Positions 1,833 through 31,095 of a stretch of 64,000 nucleotides of DNA are shown one piece after another (position 1 is the stretch's first letter; every line of letters starts with the position of its first letter). The DNA is from an uncultured bacterium (GTDB taxonomy: Bacteria > Verrucomicrobiota > Kiritimatiellia > RFP12 > UBA1067): positions 27,516-91,515 of the forward strand of contig CACXRO010000014.1 of NCBI GenBank assembly GCA_902770045.1. Reading direction: 5' to 3'. Below the pieces are notes generated by a model, which had not been told where the DNA came from, did no database searches, and worked only from the letters and a program-made list of their open reading frames with translations. The position numbers were made by a program, and so were the translations under genes.

Positions 1833-2657
1833 CTACCTCTTTGCGCCCTTCAGGACTTCGACGAGCGAATTCTGCAGGAGCTCGTTGTGTTCCGGCAAGG
1901 TGTCGCCTTCGACGATGCGACTGCATTTGTCGCAGATCCCGCACAGGTTTTCGTACAAAGCCGACTTCTCCTTTGCCGAAGCAAGTGACGCGGTCATTGC
2001 CGCGACGCGACTGGCTTCGTCCGCCGCCGCGGCAGTTTCCTGGCTGCAGATGCTGTTCGTCGCCGCCGCGATTTCCGCCGCGGCTTTGCACTCCACCACC
2101 TCTACATGCTTGTTCCAACCCCAAAGCCTGCCCTTCTCGAGGCGCTCGACCGAGACCTGGCACGGGAAGGCGTTGGTGGCCGCAAAGGCGCGGAGCCGGA
2201 CAATCTGATTGGTGCGATGGGCGTAGACGGTGGTGAGGATCAGAAGCTCCCGGTCAAGCTGCTTGATTTCCTTCTGCTGTCCCGAGAGCATCCTTTCGCA
2301 AACAGACTTCCGCTCCTTCCAGATGCGGCGCCAGCACTTTGCATAGCCTTTCGGGTCTTTCCGCCGCGCCTCGTCCGTCCACTCCCAGGGCAGAATCTCG
2401 TTGCCCTGCTCCTTGAGCCACGCATGGATCTCCGGCTCCAGCCCAACCTCGGCGTCCGACCAATTCGCAGCCGGCTTCACGAGCAGCCGCACGCAGCTCG
2501 CCCTTTGCGCCTCCTCGAGGAACTGCGCAAGCGTCTGGTGCTGCGTCTCCTCCGGCGGCCATAGGCGCACCACCACCCGATAGGCCAGCGCCAGCACGAC
2601 CACCACCAACAGTGCCGCGCCAAACATCCCCGCCAACTCCTTCGCCTCCTTTTTCAT
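1833..2657 (-). CDS. hypothetical membrane-anchored protein (one N-terminal TM helix, coiled-coil-like remainder)
   Basis: 274-aa ORF. The N-terminus is MKKEAKELAGMFGAALLVVVVLALAYRVVV. I recognise no family motif. A promoter motif abuts the ATG. Confidence 0.5.
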   Translation of the reverse strand: MKKEAKELAGMFGAALLVVVVLALAYRVVVRLWPPEETQHQTLAQFLEEAQRASCVRLLVKPAANWSDAEVGLEPEIHAWLKEQGNEILPWEWTDEARRKDPKGYAKCWRRIWKERKSVCERMLSGQQKEIKQLDRELLILTTVYAHRTNQIVRLRAFAATNAFPCQVSVERLEKGRLWGWNKHVEVVECKAAAEIAAATNSICSQETAAAADEASRVAAMTASLASAKEKSALYENLCGICDKCSRIVEGDTLPEHNELLQNSLVEVLKGAKR

Positions 2658-2841: not shown

Positions 2842-4037
2842 CTATGCTTCCAGCCGGCGCGCGATCGCCTCGGCAAGTTCGCCGCGGACACCGGCCTCGG
2901 ACGCGAAACGCAGCCAGTCGCGGACGGCGCCCCTCACTTCGTCAAGGACTGCGCGCGCACGGCGCTCGCGCATGTTGGCGAACGTCGCCAAGGCGAGGAT
3001 GTCCGCTTCCTCAATGCCGGTGCGCCCCATTCGCCGCGCCTATCCATCAGGTACGCGATGTTCTTCACGTGGTCGTCGCAGTTCCACGCGAGGACGTTGA
3101 ACGCCATGCGGCGGAATAGCTGCTCGTCCGCCCGCGCGTCGTTCACCACCTGCCGCGTGACGCGAAACGCCTGCTCGTAGGAATATCCGGACGGGTCGTT
3201 GAAATCCATGTGCGCCATCGCCCCCAGCGTCTGCGCATGCAGCTTGCCGCCGTCCGGAAGCCGGTCGAACCGCCGCGTCATGAAGTGCCGTCCGTCCCAG
3301 AGACGGCATTCCGTCATCTCTATCCCGGCGGCACGGGCCATGAGATGGTAGGCATACTCGACGCGGCCATAGCCCCACTTGTCGTCGCCCTCCCTGTCGC
3401 CGTTGCCCGCGATTCCGTCGAACTTGACGAGCCAGTAGCCGAATCCTCCGGGAAGCGCAATCTGGCCGGAGCGCACTTCCCCCGTCGCCTCGTTCCAGCC
3501 GATGAGCGCCTTCGCCCTGGCGCCGCCGGCGGAAGATCCGACCCTGAGGATGGAGGCGTACCGCTTCATGTCGGGGACGAGCCTGGCGACGGACTCGGTC
3601 CGCACCCTGAGCACCTCGGCAGCCAGTTCGGCAAGGGCGTCGACATGGAGTTCCTCCGACTTGTCCTCGTCATCGAACAATGCCGGCCTGTACTCAAGCG
3701 CCCCCATCCCGCGAACGCCGGTGTAGCAAAGGCGTTCAATCGGCGTGAGGCTTTCCGGCAGCCGCCCCTGCGCCTTCAGCCACGCACCGATCACTGCGTT
3801 GCCGAACTTGTCCGGAAGCGAATCGGACAGCATTCCCGGGAGCCCGTGGAACGAGACCTGGGGAAGCGCGGCAAAAGAATACGTTCCGGCGCCTACGGGC
3901 ATCATCAACGGCGACGGCTCGATGCCCGCAACAATAAACTCCCGGTCATATGCAAACGACGCCCAGGAAGATCCCTCGGTCCTTGACACGACGCCAATGC
4001 GCCGTCCCCAAAGATAGACTTCCGCCGCTTCGTTCAT
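2842..4037 (-). pseudogene. hipA: HipA-family Ser/Thr kinase toxin, disrupted near 3013-3030 (internal deletion/frameshift)
   Basis: ORF 2934..4037 has the HipA N-terminal domain and the catalytic CDDHVKN motif. The expected W-x-LAPAYD segment is truncated to EWGAPA. The C-terminal tail (GRTGIEEADILALA...WLRFASEAGV...) continues in another frame as ORF 2842..3030. Confidence 0.65.
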
Positions 4038-4369
4038 TGGTCAGTCCCCCACACTTTGGCCGCCGCGCGCCTCCGCCGTGCGCGCTTCGGCAATGTTCGC
4101 TTTGCGAGGATGTCCTGCGGCGACAACTGCACCTCCGGAAGCAGCGACTCAAAACCATCCGTCAGCGACAACGCGCCACAAACGGCAAAGAAAACATCAA
4201 GCCGAAGTCCTCCAGCACCAGCCTCAAGCCGCTCAAGTGATCGCTTGGACACTCCAGCTCGCTGCGATAGCTCTGCCTGCGTTATGTTGCGAGCAAGCCT
4301 GACTTGCGCGAAACGCCTACCCGCCTCGCGTAAAGCCTCGTCCACAGTCATTGCCACATTGAATTTCAC
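4034..4369 (-). CDS. hipB: HipB-like XRE-family HTH antitoxin
   Basis: Contains ...LARNITQAELSQRAGVSKRSLERLEAG. There is a 4-nt overlap with the hipA start. The track start 4369 is a GTG. An in-frame ATG at 4351 (MTVDEAL) is an alternative start. Confidence 0.7.
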   Translation of the reverse strand: MKFNVAMTVDEALREAGRRFAQVRLARNITQAELSQRAGVSKRSLERLEAGAGGLRLDVFFAVCGALSLTDGFESLLPEVQLSPQDILAKRTLPKRARRRRAAAKVWGTDQ

Positions 4370-4438: not shown

Positions 4439-4475
4439 CAACCCTCCGCAGTTGCGCAAGGGGCACGAGCCGGTC

Positions 4476-4525
4476 ACAGGAAAGTGTTTGAGTTGAGAGC
4501 GTTTTGGGGGTTGAGTTGGGGGAGT
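4476..4525. repeat. direct repeat copy B flanking the hipBA module
   Basis: See copy A. A 24-nt identical core is followed by a related gttgagttggggg stretch. Confidence 0.8.
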
Positions 4526-4545
4526 CAATGGTTTGAGTTGCGTTC

Positions 4546-5346
4546 CTATATCCCTCTGAAGAATTCCAGCAATGTTTTGATGACCTTTTCAACTGGCTCG
4601 TCAATCCATGCGTAATCTGGATTCGCCAGCCTCTTCAGAAAGGTCTTGCTGGAGAATATCCGCCCGAGCCGCCGTTCGATGTCGAGGACATCGTTCTCGA
4701 GCATTCCTACGTCCTCGAAGATGCATATCCGAAGGTAATCTCCCAGCACCTTGGCATCCACGCGGCTGCAGAGGTAGTAAAGGTCGTACACATCCTTGTA
4801 CCGCGTAGAGACAACTCCAAGCTTGAGCAGGCTTTTCAGCTTCTCGACAAAAATCTGCTCCTTGGAATTGACAAGAAGAACCACGCCGACGTCGTTTGAA
4901 ACCACCTTGAACCTGAAGTCCACCTGCTCAATTAACTTGTTGCCATGTACACCGATGTCGACTTTTGTCCTTATCGATCTCCCCGCGTCATCGGTCAGGA
5001 CTATGTTTGCCCGCATTCCTTTGTATTCGCCCTGCCGCAATTCCTGGATTTCGCCTTCAATCCGGATCTCGCATCCGGCAACGCGGTTGAGGCGTTGCAC
5101 GAAGCGCCTGATGGACGCATCGCCAAGGGAATAGCCGAGGAAATCGAAATCCATGTCTATGGTGGCACGGCGCACTGCATCTGATATCCCGCTCATGACC
5201 ACACCGCCCTTAATCGTCACCTTGTCGTGGAATCCGGCATCCTCGATTGCCTTGAGAACTATGTCATGGGCAATCTTGGCTTCAGCCTTGCGTGGCGGAT
5301 ATCCGGCCGCCTTCAGCGTTGCGGCGATATCATTGAAATCCATCAA
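4546..5346 (-). CDS. AbiEii/AbiGii-family nucleotidyltransferase toxin (type IV TA / abortive infection)
   Basis: KIAHDIVLKAIEDAGFHDKVTIKGGVVMSG...TIDMDFDF matches the family's N-terminal KGGTAL...D.D pattern as I remember it. The gene is AT-richer than its surroundings. Confidence 0.65.
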   Translation of the reverse strand: MMDFNDIAATLKAAGYPPRKAEAKIAHDIVLKAIEDAGFHDKVTIKGGVVMSGISDAVRRATIDMDFDFLGYSLGDASIRRFVQRLNRVAGCEIRIEGEIQELRQGEYKGMRANIVLTDDAGRSIRTKVDIGVHGNKLIEQVDFRFKVVSNDVGVVLLVNSKEQIFVEKLKSLLKLGVVSTRYKDVYDLYYLCSRVDAKVLGDYLRICIFEDVGMLENDVLDIERRLGRIFSSKTFLKRLANPDYAWIDEPVEKVIKTLLEFFRGI

Positions 5347-5882
5347 AACACCTCGCTTTCGATAGTCCGCAATATAGACTCCTTTTTGGGGAACACATCA
5401 AGATAGTCCGTTAGCTTCGCGGGATAGAGCGTGTCCCTTATCCGGCGGAAGGACTCAATGACCTCCTTGTAGAGGTCATAAGGTAGCTTTGTCTTGTTTC
5501 TTGCCGTCTCTATAAGCAGTCTTTCCTTGTCGAAGATACGCGAAACATCGTCGTTCAAGAACTTATGGGAAACGACGCCAATCCCCACCGTCCCCTTGGG
5601 CAGAAAGTGCTGTACGACCCGCTCATCATAAATCTTCGCCGCGTCCCTATCCGTTGCAAGATGGAGCGCTTCTGGAACTGAATCAGAAAGGTCATAGTAA
5701 AAATATGCGCTTTGCAGCGTCACAACCGCGTTGGGATATCTAGCCAGCATGACTTCGACTTCCGACCATTCCGCCTGATCACTATAGAGGCCCAAGGCGA
5801 CCTTATGCAGTTCGCCATTGCGTATCAGAAGTTCTGCCCGATACCGTCCGCCGTATTTCTCACAGCATTCTGAGAAACTCAT
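5343..5882 (-). CDS. AbiEi-family antitoxin / transcriptional regulator
   Basis: The N-terminus ...LIRNGELHKVALGLYSD is typical of the AbiEi_4 wHTH. There is a 4-nt overlap with the toxin gene. The track start 5888 is a GTG, and I prefer ATG 5882 (MSFSECC). Confidence 0.55.
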   Translation of the reverse strand: MSFSECCEKYGGRYRAELLIRNGELHKVALGLYSDQAEWSEVEVMLARYPNAVVTLQSAYFYYDLSDSVPEALHLATDRDAAKIYDERVVQHFLPKGTVGIGVVSHKFLNDDVSRIFDKERLLIETARNKTKLPYDLYKEVIESFRRIRDTLYPAKLTDYLDVFPKKESILRTIESEVF

Positions 5883-5933
5883 CACCACTACATCGCCCTC
5901 CGCGTTTTCATATTTTTGCGTAGAATGGTGTGT

Positions 5934-5942
5934 ATTGTACCA
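5934..5942 (-). promoter_or_regulatory. extended -10 TGGTACAAT upstream of abiEi
   Basis: Minus strand reads ggtaggtaTGGTACAATACacac, about 51 nt upstream of ATG 5882. Confidence 0.45.
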
Positions 5943-6005
5943 TACCTACCCAATAAGTGTCAATCGGCGTCAGATTGGCGGGGATTGGACGTATATGAGC
6001 ATGGT

Positions 6006-7661
6006 ATGAAAACTGACAAGCATAGCAAGAGGAAGTTCGCACGGACGAGATTTCTCGCGGCGGTGGTGACGTCGTCGCCGGCGGTCGTATTCGTCTATTC
6101 GCCGCTACTGGCCGGGATGACCGTCGTCGGCATCGTTGTCCCCTTCGCGATGGGGCGCTTCATCGACGCGCTCGTGGGCGGCCTGCCGCCGGTTGCTCCG
6201 TTCGCGGTCCTCGCCGCGCTGCTGGCAGCCCGCGCCGTCCTGACGCCCTGCCTCCAGCGGTTCGCCATCTCCCGAGCCAGAATGGTAGAGCTGCGGCTTC
6301 AGGAGCGCGTCCTCGCCGCTGTCATGGACTTTCCTCCCGCCGAGCTTTCGCCGCTCGCCGACGGATCGCTCGTCGCCAAGTTGACGCGCGACGCGTATGC
6401 CGTTGGCGGGTTCGTGAGCGGACTCTACCCGCGGCTGCTGACCGCCGTCGTCACGATGGCTGCGGCCGGCATCGCGCTGCACTCGCGCTCGCCCGTGCTT
6501 TCCATTGCCTTCATGGCGTTCATACCGCTCGCAATTCTCCTCTTCGTCCCCTTCACGCGGCGCTTCGCCGCCAACGCCCATTCTGTGCGCAAAAAGAGCG
6601 ACGGCGCATTTGCCGCGCTCTTCGACTTCTTCCGCTCACTCCCCTTCCTGCGCACGCTCGACGCCGAGCGCCGCTTCGCCGAGGCGCCGCGGCAGTCGCT
6701 GCAGGAGCTCAAGGACGGCAACTGCGCGATGGACAGGCTGACGGTCGCGTTCGGCGCACTGCTCGGCGCTACCTTGGTCATGGGGGAAATCGCCGTCCTC
6801 GGCGTGGCCGGCGCGCTCGCCGCCAGGGGCGCGATTCCGGTCGGGGACGTCGTGGTCTACCAGATGCTGTTCCTCGCGGCGATGCAGTCCGTGCAGGGCA
6901 TCGTCTCGCTCCTGCCGGAGACCGCGGCGCTTCGCGAAGGCGTCGACTCGCTGGACGAAATTCTCGGCCGCGCGCCGCCGCGCCGCGGCGGACGCCGGAT
7001 CGACGCCGTGGAGAGCGTCGAGTTCCGCGGCGTCACGTTCGCCTACCCGGGCGCGGACGCAAAGCCAGTAGTCAAGGACTTCTCCGCCTCCTTCCGAGCC
7101 GGGAGAATCGTCGCGATAGTCGGCGCCAACGGCTCCGGGAAAACGACCCTGCTCAGGCTGGCAACCGCCGCGCTGGCGCCGCAGGCTGGCGAAATCCTCG
7201 TCAACGGCTCGCCCATCGCGGCACTCAACGAGGGGTTCTTCCGGCGAAGGCTCGGGATCGTCTTTCAGGACAGCCTGCTCGTCTCCGGCACGGTGCGCGA
7301 CAACATCACGTTGCGGGATCCCGACTTCACGGCAAGCGACATCGACGAGGCAATGACGCTGAGCGGGCTAAAGGAGGTAGTCGGACGGCTCCCGGACGGA
7401 CTCGACACGCGCGTCGGACTCAACGGGCAGTCCCTTTCGGGCGGGGAAATGCAGCGCCTCGCGATCGCCAGGGCGCTCATTCGCAGACCAGGCATCCTCG
7501 TCCTCGACGAAGTGACGAACCATCTCGACGCGGAGGCGCGCGCCGGTTTCGGGAAACTCCTGCGCCGGCTGGCGCCAGGACGCATAGTCCTCGTCGTCAG
7601 CCACGACCACGCCATAATCGAACTCTGCGACGAAAAAATTTCCTGTCAGATTCCCGGATAG
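6006..7661 (+). CDS. fused permease/ATPase ABC exporter (type I exporter fold); candidate peptide exporter of the graspetide cluster
   Basis: Walker A GANGSGKTT, signature LSGGEMQR and Walker B ILVLDE are present, with N-terminal TM helices. The start at ATG 6006 (MKTDKHSKRK) is preferred. In-frame ATG 5925 is also possible. Confidence 0.8.
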   Translation: MKTDKHSKRKFARTRFLAAVVTSSPAVVFVYSPLLAGMTVVGIVVPFAMGRFIDALVGGLPPVAPFAVLAALLAARAVLTPCLQRFAISRARMVELRLQERVLAAVMDFPPAELSPLADGSLVAKLTRDAYAVGGFVSGLYPRLLTAVVTMAAAGIALHSRSPVLSIAFMAFIPLAILLFVPFTRRFAANAHSVRKKSDGAFAALFDFFRSLPFLRTLDAERRFAEAPRQSLQELKDGNCAMDRLTVAFGALLGATLVMGEIAVLGVAGALAARGAIPVGDVVVYQMLFLAAMQSVQGIVSLLPETAALREGVDSLDEILGRAPPRRGGRRIDAVESVEFRGVTFAYPGADAKPVVKDFSASFRAGRIVAIVGANGSGKTTLLRLATAALAPQAGEILVNGSPIAALNEGFFRRRLGIVFQDSLLVSGTVRDNITLRDPDFTASDIDEAMTLSGLKEVVGRLPDGLDTRVGLNGQSLSGGEMQRLAIARALIRRPGILVLDEVTNHLDAEARAGFGKLLRRLAPGRIVLVVSHDHAIIELCDEKISCQIPG

Positions 7662-7735
7662 CCGTCCGTATACAAGAACGTAGCGGGCGAGTGTCCGCTG
7701 CATTGGTTAACCAAAACAAAAAGGAAACAACAAAA

Positions 7736-7837
7736 ATGACACCAAATGACATCGCGACCGATATCGCTGGGCTTGACCCAAACAAGCCGACCACGTACTT
7801 CACCTACACGTTTGAAAGGTTGGATGACGCACAATAA
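7736..7837 (+). CDS. candidate graspetide precursor peptide (33 aa): MTPNDIATDIAGLDPNKPTTYFTYTFERLDDAQ
   Basis: Too short for the ORF track. The RBS is aaAGGAAAcaacaaaaATG and the stop is TAA at 7835-7837. The C-terminal half is rich in Thr (x4) and Lys with Glu/Asp (x3). It lies 70 nt upstream of the ATP-grasp gene. Confidence 0.55.
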   Translation: MTPNDIATDIAGLDPNKPTTYFTYTFERLDDAQ

Positions 7838-7851
7838 TTAGTGCAAAACCC

Positions 7852-7881
7852 AATCGGGGCTGGCAATAGTCAGCCCCGATT
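7852..7881 (+). terminator. perfect 11-bp hairpin after the precursor ORF (attenuator or partial terminator candidate)
   Basis: aatcggggctg-gcaatagt-cagccccgatt. There is no clean U-tract, so it may be a processing or attenuation structure. Confidence 0.45.
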
Positions 7882-7907
7882 ATCTCAATCCTCACATAAT
7901 AAGATCC

Positions 7908-8843
7908 ATGATCTTCATATATACCTTCAGCCAGGACTCGACCACTGACATAGTATTGGAAGAACTAGGCAAAAACGATGTTCTACGATTGAATATCGAC
8001 AAAACAGAGAATTTCGCATGGGATTTTCACCGCTATGGATTTTACATCGTTGACAAGTCGAACAACAAGGAAATTTCCGACAAAACAATATCTTCTTTCT
8101 ACCTTCGCAAACCAATTTTTCTAGATAGTATCGACATACCAAGATTCGGATGTGTAGAAAACTGGCGTCGAGAGGAAACGAGCGAGTTGTTTCAGGACTT
8201 CTACCGCGAATGTCAGCATCGCGGACTCGTCACACTCGTTCGCTCTCAGGACAACAAATACGGCAAACTGCGGCAGCTCCTCGTCGCACAGAAATATTTC
8301 CGCGTCGCCAAGTGGCACTTCTTCCATGGCAAGCTGCCCGAAGAGTGCAAACGCGGCAGATGGGTGGTGAAGTCGATGACGCAAACGTCTATCGGGGAAA
8401 ACAAGGTTTTCTTCGTCAAAGAAGTCGATCCCGCCGCGCTGGACCTCTCCTATCCGTGGTTCGTGCAGGAGCGGATCGAGGGCGAAGAGGAAGTGACGGT
8501 AGTCTATGTCGACGGCAAGACCTACGCTGCAAGCGCGGCGCGTGAATCGTTCGGCGGAGAGGACTCGCGGAAGTCGCTGCTTGAGCATCCAGTTGCCTGG
8601 CCGCGATGCGAGCTGACGCCGGAGGAGGAGCGCGCGATACGCGGCTTCATGGATGAGACGGGCTACCGGTTCGGGCGCTTCGACTTCATCCGCAAGGACG
8701 GCGAGCTGTGGTTCCTGGAGCTGAACCCGAACGGACAGTGGGCGTGGCTCGACGAGAAGAACGAGCACGGGCTCGTCTCAATGGTAGCTGGCGCGATCAA
8801 GGCCGAAGACCGGACGCATCGGGCGCGTCCATCTCTTCTCTGA
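7908..8843 (+). CDS. MdnC/MvdD-type ATP-grasp macrocyclase (graspetide synthetase)
   Basis: The N-terminus MIFIYTFSQDSTTDIVLEEL...LRLNIDK and C-terminal FDFIRKDGELWFLELNPNGQWAWL resemble MdnC (VLIVTFSRDNESIPLV...; IFLEINPVGEFFWL) from memory. The first ~300 nt are AT-rich. Confidence 0.7.
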   Translation: MIFIYTFSQDSTTDIVLEELGKNDVLRLNIDKTENFAWDFHRYGFYIVDKSNNKEISDKTISSFYLRKPIFLDSIDIPRFGCVENWRREETSELFQDFYRECQHRGLVTLVRSQDNKYGKLRQLLVAQKYFRVAKWHFFHGKLPEECKRGRWVVKSMTQTSIGENKVFFVKEVDPAALDLSYPWFVQERIEGEEEVTVVYVDGKTYAASAARESFGGEDSRKSLLEHPVAWPRCELTPEEERAIRGFMDETGYRFGRFDFIRKDGELWFLELNPNGQWAWLDEKNEHGLVSMVAGAIKAEDRTHRARPSLL

Positions 8844-9411
8844 CCTTCGCGGCGGTTTCGCGCAGCTTCGCGGTGAGGCGGGCGCGGATCTGGTAGAGGT
8901 TGTCGCGCGAGAGGCCGTAGAGCTTCATCACCGCCTCGGTGTCCTGCCCATCAACCGTGCTCGCCACGAACGCCGCGTAGTGGTCGGGGCGGACTTCCGG
9001 CTTGATGCGGCGCAGCGCCTCCTCCAGCGCGGCGGCCTGCCATTCGCGCTCGGAGAATCCGTTGTCGTCGCCAGGCTTCGTCTCTAAGACGTCCTTCAGC
9101 GCGGCGTCGCGGTTCCTCTCCCGGAACTTGTCCTTGACGCGCCAGTGGACGAGCCCGGTCAGGTACGACCTGAACTTGCCCTTCGCGCGGTCGTACTGGA
9201 ACGTCGGGAGGTTCCGCGCGAGGTCGGAGAAGACGACCTGCAAGACGTCGTCCGCGTCATCCTCCGAGAGCCCCTTGGAGCGCGCGATGGAGAAGATAAA
9301 CCCCGCATAGAGGTCGAAGAGCCGCTGCCAGGCGGCCTGGTTGCCGGTGTCCGCGACCGCCCTGATTACGCTGGAGCGCGTCGCCTCATTATTGAAGTGT
9401 CTGTAGGTCAT
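8797..9411 (-). CDS. ECF-type RNA polymerase sigma-70 family factor
   Basis: Region 2-like DDADDVLQVVFSDLARNL and region 4-like YGLSRDNLYQIRARL are present. There is a 4-nt overlap with the upstream kinase gene, and a convergent 47-nt overlap with the ATP-grasp 3' end. Confidence 0.75.
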   Translation of the reverse strand: MTYRHFNNEATRSSVIRAVADTGNQAAWQRLFDLYAGFIFSIARSKGLSEDDADDVLQVVFSDLARNLPTFQYDRAKGKFRSYLTGLVHWRVKDKFRERNRDAALKDVLETKPGDDNGFSEREWQAAALEEALRRIKPEVRPDHYAAFVASTVDGQDTEAVMKLYGLSRDNLYQIRARLTAKLRETAAKVREEMDAPDASGLRP

Positions 9412-10544
9412 TTAGAATCGCTTTCGTCACTCTCGTTATCAGTGGACTTCGGCGCGAAGTCAGCTTGCAGCCTGGCAAGATGTTCCTTCTGCTCGTTTTT
9501 CATTTCCTCAAACTGCGTGGAAAGTTCCATGTCCAACTCCCCGCTCCTAATCCGCTGTAGATTCGGGTCGTTCTTAACAGCATCTTCAACCAGCGATTTT
9601 TTCACCTCCTGCACGGAGACCGAGCGTCCACTGGAGGCGACAAGAAACCAGATGGCACCAATGGCGGCCAACGCCAGAAGCGCAATTGCGACCTTGAACA
9701 GAGGAGAACCTACAACCACGATTCTGCGATTAAGGCTTTCGAAGTCCTTCAAGAGCGCCTTGGCAGACTGGTAGCGTCGGGATGGTGTTGGATCAGTTGC
9801 CTTGTTGAGGATACGCCACCAGGCGGGGAAGAACCTTGATCCCGTATCCGCCTCCAGCGCAGGGCCCTTGTCCAGATCCTCGATTTTCCGGCCAAAGCTC
9901 GCGGCCTTCAGAGTGAGGCCGAGGCTGTAGACGTCGCCGGAGGCGGCGGTGAAGCTCTCCGGCGGAACATAGCCGGGGGTGCCGACCAGCGATGCCGCCG
10001 CAGCTTCCTCGACTACAAGTCCGGGGTCGGAAAGAACAGGACGGCCGCCGACATAGATTATGTTCCCGGGCTTGATGTCGCGGTGCAGCAGATGGTGGCG
10101 CTGGAGCGCGGCAAGTCCCTTGGCGAGGGTGACGCCAAGCTTGACGCACTCGCCGAGCGGCAGCGCCTTTTCGCCGGCGATGACGCTGGCAAGCGTCTTG
10201 GGGCGATAACCGGCTGACGCTTCCTGTGGACCGCCGAATTCGTCGTCCGCAAGCTCCATAACGGCAAAGAAGCCCCACGGCTCCTCCGCCAGTTCCAGCA
10301 TCCGGACAAGCCCTTCCTGCGGAGGAATCGCCCGGTAGAGTTTTGCGCCGCGCAGCTCGCGCTCGAAGCGCTCATCGCCAATATCTTCGCAACGGCAGAC
10401 CTTGACCGCCACGCGTCCGCCGTCAGGCGCGGAGGCGAGATAGACCGTGCCGTACGCGCCGCGGCCGATCTCCTGCTGGAGCCCGTATTCCCCGCATTGA
10501 CGCGGAAGCTCCCCACCTCCATCATGTATCGTGTCGAAAAGCAT
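9408..10544 (-). CDS. Ser/Thr protein kinase with a C-terminal TM helix and an extracytoplasmic coiled-coil tail
   Basis: Motifs GRGAYGTVY, AVKV, HRDIKPGNI, SDPG and GTPGYVPPE are present. The TM helix is PLFKVAIALLALAAIGAIWFLVA. Confidence 0.85.
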   Translation of the reverse strand: MLFDTIHDGGGELPRQCGEYGLQQEIGRGAYGTVYLASAPDGGRVAVKVCRCEDIGDERFERELRGAKLYRAIPPQEGLVRMLELAEEPWGFFAVMELADDEFGGPQEASAGYRPKTLASVIAGEKALPLGECVKLGVTLAKGLAALQRHHLLHRDIKPGNIIYVGGRPVLSDPGLVVEEAAAASLVGTPGYVPPESFTAASGDVYSLGLTLKAASFGRKIEDLDKGPALEADTGSRFFPAWWRILNKATDPTPSRRYQSAKALLKDFESLNRRIVVVGSPLFKVAIALLALAAIGAIWFLVASSGRSVSVQEVKKSLVEDAVKNDPNLQRIRSGELDMELSTQFEEMKNEQKEHLARLQADFAPKSTDNESDESDSK

Positions 10545-10551
10545 ATGACGT

Positions 10552-10560
10552 ATTATACCA
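10552..10560 (-). promoter_or_regulatory. extended -10 TGGTATAAT, 7 nt from the kinase ATG (leaderless configuration)
   Basis: Minus strand reads aaaataTGGTATAATACGTCATATG, with the ATG at 10544. Confidence 0.6.
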
Positions 10561-31020: not shown

Positions 31021-31095
31021 GGCCCCATCGTCTATCGGCTAGGACACGAGCTTTTCATGCTCGTTAGAGGAGTTCGACTCTCCTTGGGGCTGCCA
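31021..31095 (+). tRNA. tRNA-Glu (anticodon TTC), CCA encoded
   Basis: Hand-folded. Acceptor stem GGCCCCA/TGGGGCT. D arm GTCT-ATCGGCTA-GGAC. Anticodon arm CGAGC-TTTTCAT-GCTCG. T arm AGGAG-TTCGACT-CTCCT. Discriminator G plus CCA. Confidence 0.9.

Follow-up and report, generated by a model that had tools for sequence, protein, structure and literature searches.

The window analysed here is a 64,000-nucleotide (64-kb) stretch of DNA from an uncultured member of the Kiritimatiellia (contig CACXRO010000014.1, positions 27,516 to 91,515), and our subject is a candidate cluster in it for a graspetide, a peptide made on the ribosome and modified after translation (RiPP), with omega-ester bonds. A listing of open reading frames (ORFs) and direct reading of the DNA gave three co-directional genes on the plus strand, for an ATP-binding cassette (ABC) exporter, a peptide of 33 codons and an ATP-grasp enzyme, at the coordinates where a first-pass annotation, made from the sequence alone, had placed a compact three-gene unit. 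All three genes are present as proposed, but the conserved unit runs past 8843 and takes in 8797-10544 on the minus strand; the conserved module is one of five genes, not three:

6006-7661, plus strand: ABC exporter half-transporter with a transmembrane and a nucleotide-binding domain (Pfam ABC_membrane, 4.8e-17; ABC_tran, 8.4e-31)
7736-7837, plus strand: precursor peptide gene, 33 aa, MTPNDIATDIAGLDPNKPTTYFTYTFERLDDAQ (homologues adjoin the ligase gene)
7908-8843, plus strand: predicted ATP-grasp peptide macrocyclase (graspetide synthetase), 311 aa (profile, fold and invariant residues)
8797-9411, minus strand: extracytoplasmic function (ECF)-type sigma factor (TIGR02937 sigma70-ECF, 53.8 bits against a cut-off of 42.9; Sigma70_r2)
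9408-10544, minus strand: Hanks-type Ser/Thr kinase with one transmembrane helix and a variable charged C-terminal tail (NCBIfam kinase matches; Pkinase in orthologues)

Related loci were gathered by gene look-ups and by a scan of species-representative genomes, the latter yielding 34 loci (individual loci are cited by handles such as L008). Most of the scanned loci were labelled Kiritimatiellae, Verrucomicrobia or Lentisphaerae, and many came from the gut of goat, sheep, yak or cattle. More than 300 close homologues of the ligase were found, none of them named, the 120 listed showing about 74-98% identity, and those with a label were from Kiritimatiellae metagenome-assembled genomes (MAGs). 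The cluster family, apparently undescribed, is widespread in rumen and gut Kiritimatiellae, and the genes outside the five-gene module differ entirely from locus to locus.

The ligase had been assigned from a resemblance to the microviridin macrocyclase MdnC. Pfam gave no significant match (best ATP-grasp_3, E = 0.13, under the gathering score), and the NCBIfam matches were to graspetide synthetases of the SAV_5884 type (3.7e-21), MvdC (1e-17), MvdD (1.5e-9) and grasp-with-spasm (1.8e-8). Their scores were 75.6 bits against a cut-off of 350 for TIGR04187 (SAV_5884 type, best stretch residues 151-295), 64.3 against 425 for MvdC and 37.5 against 475 for MvdD (TIGR04185/TIGR04184), and 34.1 against 230 for grasp-with-spasm (TIGR04192); neither this region of the window nor the related loci contained a radical SAM gene. 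Compared with the PDB as a single sequence, the ligase matched AMdnB, MdnB, CdnC, PruB and MdnC with its C-terminal half only (E ~1e-9 for AMdnB and MdnB). An exhaustive search of cluster representatives returned 1,722 ligase relatives, and a profile built from 50 of these at 25-55% identity matched the same structures over the full length, AMdnB at 3e-36, MdnB at 1e-34, CdnC at 5e-34, MdnC at 1.5e-29 and PruB at 2e-23, the next match being D-Ala-D-Ala ligase (Ddl) with E = 0.009. The resemblance is real by full-length profile (2e-23 to 3e-36) but remote, the single sequence reaching only about 1e-9.

The 50 relatives behaved in the same way: all matched the SAV_5884, MvdC and MvdD models and 47 the grasp-with-spasm model, and a single one matched RimK, weakly (4.7e-4). 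A Foldseek search with the AlphaFold (AF2) model of the ligase (pLDDT, the predicted local distance difference test, 95.6) placed PruB first (5.5e-15), followed by MdnC, AMdnB, CdnC and MdnB (range 5e-15 to 1e-12), with PsnB (1e-9) and then RimK (1.7e-8) and Ddl (1e-8 and weaker) at lower ranks; the top 17 were all graspetide ligases. We therefore rejected a ligase of the RimK or glutathione synthetase type, RimK folds ranking under all graspetide ligases, and the grouping with RiPP macrocyclases, on which the first-pass annotation had staked its case, held in NCBIfam, the PDB profile search and Foldseek alike. K120, K155, R257, D259 and E271 were invariant among the 50 relatives and N273 nearly so, and FLELNPNGQW of the ligase aligns with FLEINPTGEW of AMdnB. 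Because the catalytic residues of an ATP-grasp, namely the ATP-binding Lys, the catalytic Arg and the Mg ligands of D/E-x-N, are kept, the ligase looks catalytically competent, and sequence and model together identify it as a macrocyclase of the graspetide type, in a clade named by none of the curated models.

The small ORF that precedes the ligase has its own ribosome-binding site, AGGAAA, 9 nt upstream, and the ligase gene starts 70 nt past its end. In every locus with upstream DNA, over ligase identities of 98% to 38%, a small ORF lay directly upstream of the ligase, with the exception of L044 (41%), where no precursor-like ORF was found beside the ligase; it was kept in the divergent loci L033 (56%), L036 (49%), L042 (44%) and L043 (38%). 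The annotation had counted loss of the ORF beside homologous ligases as a refutation; homologues instead precede the ligase across the related loci, with a conserved leader and a variable core, and the ORF, well past what chance would yield, is a real gene. The peptide alignment gave the leader consensus MTPN[D/E]IATx[I/V]xGL, followed by a Gly-rich spacer, often GxG[N/D][I/L]. In the first eight leader codons (MTPNDIAT) the DNA differences were mostly synonymous, and the precursor ORF is therefore translated and under purifying selection.

The core is highly variable, but the signature T-x-[T/S/C]...DD was kept in more than 100 variants, with the Asp-Asp pair 4 to about 14 residues beyond the donors and (T/N)W(D/G) often after it. 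In all cores read there was a Thr at the first donor position and an Asp-Asp pair, except in class E below, which lacks Asp-Asp, and in L024, which has Ser at the first donor; the second donor position was T, S or C throughout. A profile search of public data found 259 distinct precursor variants, none with a name or a Pfam domain; the 120 of these that were read followed the same scheme of leader and core, and precursor length ranged from 33 to 47 aa. The window precursor consists of the leader MTPNDIATDIAGL and a core containing TTYFTYTFERLDDAQ, in which T24 and T26 are the predicted donors and D31 and D32 the predicted acceptors. A Thr/Lys donor and Asp/Glu acceptor pattern had been proposed for it: the Thr donors and Asp acceptors are kept, and the Lys is not. 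An adjacent precursor with a leader and a donor/acceptor core is what a graspetide cluster should contain, but since the window Lys is not conserved there is no support for an amide link, and no lactam is expected. In L011 (3827-3970) the precursor core contains an in-frame TGA (..NYTYCSG*NGQRLDDSHTWD), which could reflect a pseudogene, a sequencing error or recoding.

These data also bear on the possibility that the small ORF is an unrelated secreted or regulatory peptide and that the ATP-grasp enzyme ligates some other molecule. The position of the ligase under all curated cut-offs, its lack of a significant Pfam match and the missing ORF beside its 41% relative in L044 would agree with this. 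The strict adjacency of ORF and ligase over 38-98% ligase identity, the conservation of leader and core, in which over 100 variants retain the nucleophile and acid positions, and the closest structures, all of peptide macrocyclases and three of them complexes with the precursor or with leader and core peptides, speak so strongly for a substrate that we consider this alternative highly improbable.

The precursor cores fell into about five discrete classes:

Class A: ..[F/Y]TYTFER[L/M]DD.. (the window, L008)
Class B: ..TGTQS[F/Y]VGxxxTIDD.. (e.g. L030)
Class C: ..W[S/R]TxxT[Y/F/H][C/S]...[V/A][P/A]DDQ.. (e.g. L001, L009, L035)
Class D: ..STNFT[Q/Y]S....DDANTWD
Class E: ..LPSWxxTLGG[Q/K]DWNQWDS

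Classes A and C were polyphyletic on a neighbour-joining tree of the ligases. Between the window and L009/L035 the DNA was 94-95% identical from the ABC gene to peptide codon 10 (7765), could not be aligned across 7766-7906, which holds the core and a hairpin, and matched at 89-91% once more between the first ligase codon and the end of the sigma gene. As identity breaks at 7766-7906 only, the core, bounded by the conserved leader and the ligase gene, has been replaced like a cassette. One MAG, UBA3750, holds two clusters, L023 and L026, with cores of classes E and C, respectively, which are either paralogues within a single genome or come from mixed strains.

Some class C peptides, for example those of L001 (5780-5923) and L009 (5796-5924), have a Cys in place of the Ser or Thr that sister sequences show at the second predicted donor (..ATYC.. 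vs ..ATYS..), and some class C cores contain two Cys. Thioester links made by graspetide synthetases have so far been described as "non-native" in the 2026 RODEO update (Carter 2026), and the Cys/Ser alternation at the second donor is worth testing for that reason. Judged from sequence, class C could contain the first natural graspetides with a thioester (thiolactone) ring made by an ATP-grasp enzyme, a bond known to date from engineered substrates alone.

In every full locus an exporter of 58-96% identity accompanied the ligase; the one exception was L036, where the match was weak and partial. Its N-terminus begins about 40 residues ahead of the first transmembrane region, and Pfam showed ABC_membrane and ABC_tran only, with no C39 peptidase domain, so that the protein is not a peptidase-containing ABC transporter; both its place on the same strand and the missing C39 domain had been anticipated. 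NCBIfam matches were to generic exporters, every one under its cut-off, and the NHLM and bacteriocin ABC models aligned to it only from the transporter part onwards. An HtrA-like Trypsin/PDZ protease was found in two loci only, L003 (2046-3518, minus strand) and L019 (5218-6690, minus strand), and is no regular partner. The two proteins are 78% identical to each other, lie on different sides of the cluster and have the same promoter motif ahead of them; the protease is a possible leader peptidase or target.

The region carries several putative expression signals:

5968-5994, plus strand: promoter-like motif with one mismatch, cGTCAGATT-N13-CGTAT, lying 11 nt ahead of the start codon of the ABC gene
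7644-7671, plus strand: promoter-like motif TGTCAGATT-N14-CGTAT, overlapping the last ABC codons (C-Q-I), 64 nt before the peptide ATG
7680-7701, plus strand: conserved hairpin with a 9-bp stem and a GAGT loop, in the predicted 5' untranslated region of the peptide mRNA, with covariation
7703-7714, plus strand: perfect 12-nt palindrome TTGGTTAACCAA, nearly invariant (23 of 24 aligned loci)
7852-7881, plus strand: GC-rich hairpin of 13 bp, behind the peptide gene and ahead of the ligase gene (-24.5 kcal/mol, z = -5.0)
10552-10560, minus strand: extended -10 element TGGTATAAT, 7 nt before the kinase ATG, with the same element before the kinase in many loci

In 24 aligned regions upstream of the peptide gene, TGTCAGAT and GTA were invariant, with a spacer of 14 or 15 nt followed by CGTA(T). 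The C-Q-I codons were invariant even at synonymous positions, which argues for constraint on the motif at the level of DNA; an A-rich ribosome-binding site was conserved downstream. The same motif stood ahead of the ABC start in nearly all related loci, mostly 3 to 14 nt upstream. The exact pattern occurred twice in the 64-kb window against an expectation of 0.07, and the window holds three sites in all, each within 7 kb of the sigma gene. The third copy, TGTCAG-N16-CGTAT at 2795-2769 on the minus strand, lies 111 nt before the gene for a 274-aa membrane-anchored protein (1833-2657, minus strand) with no Pfam match, which on this sequence evidence may belong to the same regulon. With a -10 of the CGTA(T) type and an inter-hexamer gap of 16 or 17 nt, the layout resembles an ECF-type promoter; that of Bacillus subtilis sigma-W, TGAAAC-N16-CGTATA, is an example for comparison. 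L041 contains four near-identical copies of a 27-nt promoter-like motif, three of them identical and one with a single base different.

Across the two helices counted downstream of the peptide promoter, 91% of cells were paired, and in the hairpin at 7680-7701 three pairs changed on both sides, G-U wobbles occurred on the plus strand only, and none of 500 shuffles reached the covariation score. The palindrome TTGGTTAACCAA behind it is a candidate operator or small stem-loop, and Rfam gave no match for this conserved leader region. The gap that separates peptide and ligase genes contained a strong, GC-rich hairpin, 8 to 17 bp long, in 30 of 30 loci, with unrelated sequence in divergent loci; a short T run follows it in some loci and the U tract of the window is weak, and a consensus terminator scan did not call the hairpin at 7852-7881. 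By analogy, it may act as an attenuator or an mRNA stabiliser that gives more peptide than ligase mRNA, an arrangement familiar in other RiPP operons. The kinase-sigma operon appears from its sequence to be served by TGGTATAAT, a promoter of the housekeeping type and unlike the two promoters of the cluster. Its -10 lies about 7 nt before the kinase ATG, and the ABC start also follows its motif by about 11 nt, which suggests leaderless mRNAs in this lineage.

The sigma gene is convergent with the ligase gene and overlaps its 3' end by 47 nt, and the overlap was present in the loci whose gene calls were read. The kinase stop overlaps the sigma start (ATGA), suggesting translational coupling of kinase and sigma. 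A tblastn search with the proteins of the window placed the pair near the cluster in about 26 of the 31 informative loci, with sigma orthologues at 43-97% identity. The linkage survived rearrangement, the pair having moved upstream in L016 and L024 and been reordered in L025, L028 and L032, and the pair was present in the deepest branches, L033 (56% ligase identity) and L036 (49%). On the contig of L010, which has an intact cluster without the pair, the decayed cluster L041 (5719-8238) lies 29 kb away; in this remnant ABC codons ~269-316 run straight into ligase codons ~258-308, and sigma and kinase still stand next to it.

Coupling of an ECF sigma gene to a Hanks-type kinase gene is the arrangement of the ECF43 pairs EcfP/PknT and EcfK/PknS, whose kinases likewise have a single transmembrane helix and a variable outer domain (PMC13147305). 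In ECF43 sigmas, region 2.2 is uncharged and QTTA, with a phospho-acceptor Thr, takes the place of DxxD (PMC13147305); the gene order in the present cluster, kinase then sigma, also differs. The kinase domain was 60-82% identical across loci, whereas the tail beyond the transmembrane helix could not be aligned; the tails were charged and coiled-coil-like, with no recognisable ligand-binding domain. The window and L008 have a common peptide and unalignable kinase tails, and one tail type was common to L008 (class A), L035 (class C) and L030 (class B). A kinase acting as a peptide-tailoring enzyme of the LanL type is unlikely, since the protein is membrane-anchored and its gene translationally coupled to sigma.

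A number of these and further observations weigh against the reading of the five genes as one graspetide system. The NCBIfam graspetide scores of the ligase lie 4 to 12 times under the curated cut-offs, no leader peptidase gene is encoded near the cluster, and the peptides of the window and L008 are an unusually short variant of class A with neither the GxG-NI spacer nor the C-terminal TWD. About 5 of the 31 informative loci had no sigma/kinase pair within reach, and distant ligase relatives (41% and 36% identity) had TraB/PrgY-type or pentapeptide-repeat neighbours and no pair. The promoter motif also stood ahead of assorted unrelated neighbour genes in the fetched loci, and is therefore a promoter class rather than a signal private to the cluster. 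Region 2.2 of the window sigma, SEDDADDVLQ, keeps its acidic residues and lacks the ECF43 hallmark, and when kinase tail and peptide class were tested for co-variation, none was found. Against this stand the enzyme's fold and profile matches and the conserved, adjacent precursor, and we put the probability that the locus is a cluster for a graspetide (omega-ester RiPP), of a family so far uncatalogued and found in Kiritimatiellae of gut and rumen, at roughly 80%. The first-pass proposal of a minimal, unclassified graspetide family in a host of the Planctomycetes-Verrucomicrobia-Chlamydiae (PVC) group was right, the hosts being Kiritimatiellae MAGs from ruminant guts.

Most of the regulatory points would be explained if the locus were a graspetide cluster and the sigma/kinase pair a mere syntenic neighbour, regulating something else while another sigma factor reads TGTCAG...CGTAT. 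The pair-less loci and distant relatives, the motif ahead of many unrelated genes in the loci, the missing phospho-switch signature and the many kinase paralogues carried by these genomes all fit such an arrangement, as does the result of a search for autoregulation: no TGTCAG...CGTAT motif was found before the kinase-sigma operon in the window, and elsewhere only a variant ending in CGTGT was seen, in L015. But a mere neighbour would hardly stay beside the cluster as an orthologous pair when nothing is shared in the outer flanks, when five independent rearrangements have taken place and when ligase identity is as low as 49%, with the sigma gene overlapping the ligase 3' end in loci with gene calls read and the pair still adjoining the decayed remnant L041. 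On balance we regard a neighbour-only pair as somewhat unlikely.

It has also to be asked whether the modified peptide might be a secreted pheromone, with the five core classes as pherotypes, sensed by the kinase, which would activate sigma in a loop of autoinduction. The core classes form discrete sets that strains have exchanged, exporter, membrane kinase and sigma lie within one module, and both peptide and exporter have a promoter of the alternative-sigma type. Discrete peptide classes swapped between near-identical backgrounds are also seen in the pherotype and bacteriocin loci comC/comD and agrD/agrC, and the break points in our cluster lie at the conserved leader and the next gene, a likeness by analogy only. 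Here, however, the modifying enzyme is an ATP-grasp and the extracytoplasmic tails of the kinase do not track the peptide class, as the common tail of L008, L035 and L030 and the differing tails of the window and L008 show; nor do these charged, coiled-coil-like tails contain a recognisable ligand-binding domain. Because the tails do not follow peptide class, a kinase that reads the peptide core is disfavoured, and we think a pheromone improbable.

For a graspetide cluster with its own regulatory pair, the following sequence of events can be proposed. The peptide would be transcribed from the ECF-like promoter (TGTCAGATT-N14-CGTAT) at the end of the ABC gene, a second copy driving the ABC gene itself, and the 5' hairpin together with the strong hairpin behind the peptide gene would make the short mRNA stable and abundant and let only some transcription pass on into the ligase. 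The ligase would bind the leader MTPNDIATxIxGL, phosphorylate the side chains of the invariant Asp-Asp with ATP and close two lactone rings, a predicted change of -36 Da, to the invariant Thr and to the Thr, Ser or Cys two residues on (T24 and T26 with D31 and D32 in the window). A bicyclic hairpin would result whose loop of 4 to about 14 residues forms the variable business end; the product predicted from the sequence is a bicyclic omega-ester (lactone) peptide with a variable loop. A homodimer of the ABC protein would carry it over the inner membrane, and any removal of the leader would fall to a protease whose gene lies elsewhere. Expressed constitutively, the kinase-sigma pair next door would most likely turn on both promoters; because its own promoter is of the housekeeping type, a constitutive sensor with a sigma acting on two alternative promoters fits. 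The peptide most likely serves as a protease inhibitor or a factor in strain-level competition, and exporter, peptide, ligase, membrane kinase and sigma could form a self-contained circuit controlling a strain-specific, cassette-swapped cyclic peptide. Taken jointly, the readings of class C as natural thioester rings and of kinase and sigma as such a circuit seem to us doubtful.

The cluster resembles the microviridin systems (MdnA-E/MvdA-F, group 1) in its MdnB/MdnC-homologous ATP-grasp, with the active-site motif FLExNPxGxW, its leader-bearing precursor and its same-strand ABC exporter. It differs in having one ligase rather than two and no GNAT acetyltransferase, and lacks the PFFARFL leader, the TxKYPSDx(E/D)(D/E) core and a conserved Lys; the features by which the first-pass annotation had set it apart from microviridins (no KYPSD core, no PFFARFL, no second ligase, no GNAT) were borne out. 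With the systems of plesiocin (PsnA/PsnB), prunipeptin (PruB) and fuscimiditide (ThfA/ThfB, SAV_5884-type) it shares, by prediction, a single ligase that makes several Thr/Ser-to-Asp/Glu esters in a short hairpin-like core; PruB was the top fold match and SAV_5884 the top HMM match. In contrast to these, the present cluster has the leader MTPNDIAT and the core T-x-[T/S/C]...DD, which differ from those described for these groups, no methyltransferase or repeated cores, a Kiritimatiellae host and the link to an ECF sigma/kinase pair.

Reports of further graspetide groups appear at regular intervals, and a system of this kind is in itself known. Our search of full-text literature gave no match for graspetides with Kiritimatiellae or rumen and no link between an ECF sigma/kinase pair and a RiPP cluster. 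The catalogue of Makarova et al. 2022 (174 precursor families; text and 187 supplement files) contained neither the leader sequence nor the phylum name, and lists neither sigma factors nor Ser/Thr kinases among graspetide-associated genes. The general leader feature given there, a Pro with hydrophobic residues behind it in the first 30 positions, is only loosely present in the cluster leader (P3...I6-A7). In the supplement text searched for the 2026 RODEO update (43 groups, 21,584 peptides) there was no match to the family, which leaves its absence from the two catalogues unproven.

The surroundings of the cluster differ in composition and content. G+C is 0.51-0.60 across 4-10 kb and about 0.63-0.73 for most of the remaining window. 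Upstream on the opposite strand, Pfam identified a HipA/HTH (helix-turn-helix) pair and an AbiEii/AbiEi-like pair. The HipA kinase toxin (HipA_C and Couple_hipA) and its HTH partner occupy 2934-4369 on the minus strand, and the same pair stands beside the cluster in L001. The genes for AbiEii (4546-5346) and the AbiEi-like protein (5343-5888) lie inside a 1.49-kb insertion (4472-5957) that is missing from the 95%-identical loci L009 and L035, and a sigma-70-like promoter, TTGACA-18-TACAAT with TG, stands in front of them at 5963 to 5934 on the minus strand. The claim that the cluster holds the only plus-strand protein genes of the window agreed with the ORFs tested. Five large plus-strand ORFs had no Pfam match, and three of the four overlapping minus-strand ORFs scanned did, in a scan that was not exhaustive; apart from the three plus-strand genes of the cluster, the other protein genes tested were on the minus strand. 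A tRNA-Glu (TTC) at 31021-31095 is also encoded on the plus strand.

Kiritimatiellae are abundant and almost uncultured in ruminant and other gut communities, and we know of no characterised natural product from them. With no significant Pfam match and scores under every curated family model, ligases of this kind have probably been missed by genome mining. The cluster offers a compact three-gene target for direct expression, consisting of a peptide of 33-47 aa, a ligase of 311 aa and an exporter, and with over 250 natural cores behind a single leader, nature already supplies a library for the substrate tolerance of a graspetide synthetase. The alternation of Cys and Ser at the donor position of class C is a test case for natural thioester formation. 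The linkage of the sigma/kinase pair with two promoter copies provides a tractable case for the choice of targets by kinase-coupled sigma factors of the PVC group, and control of a cyclic peptide from kinase to sigma, if true, would be a new mode of RiPP regulation.

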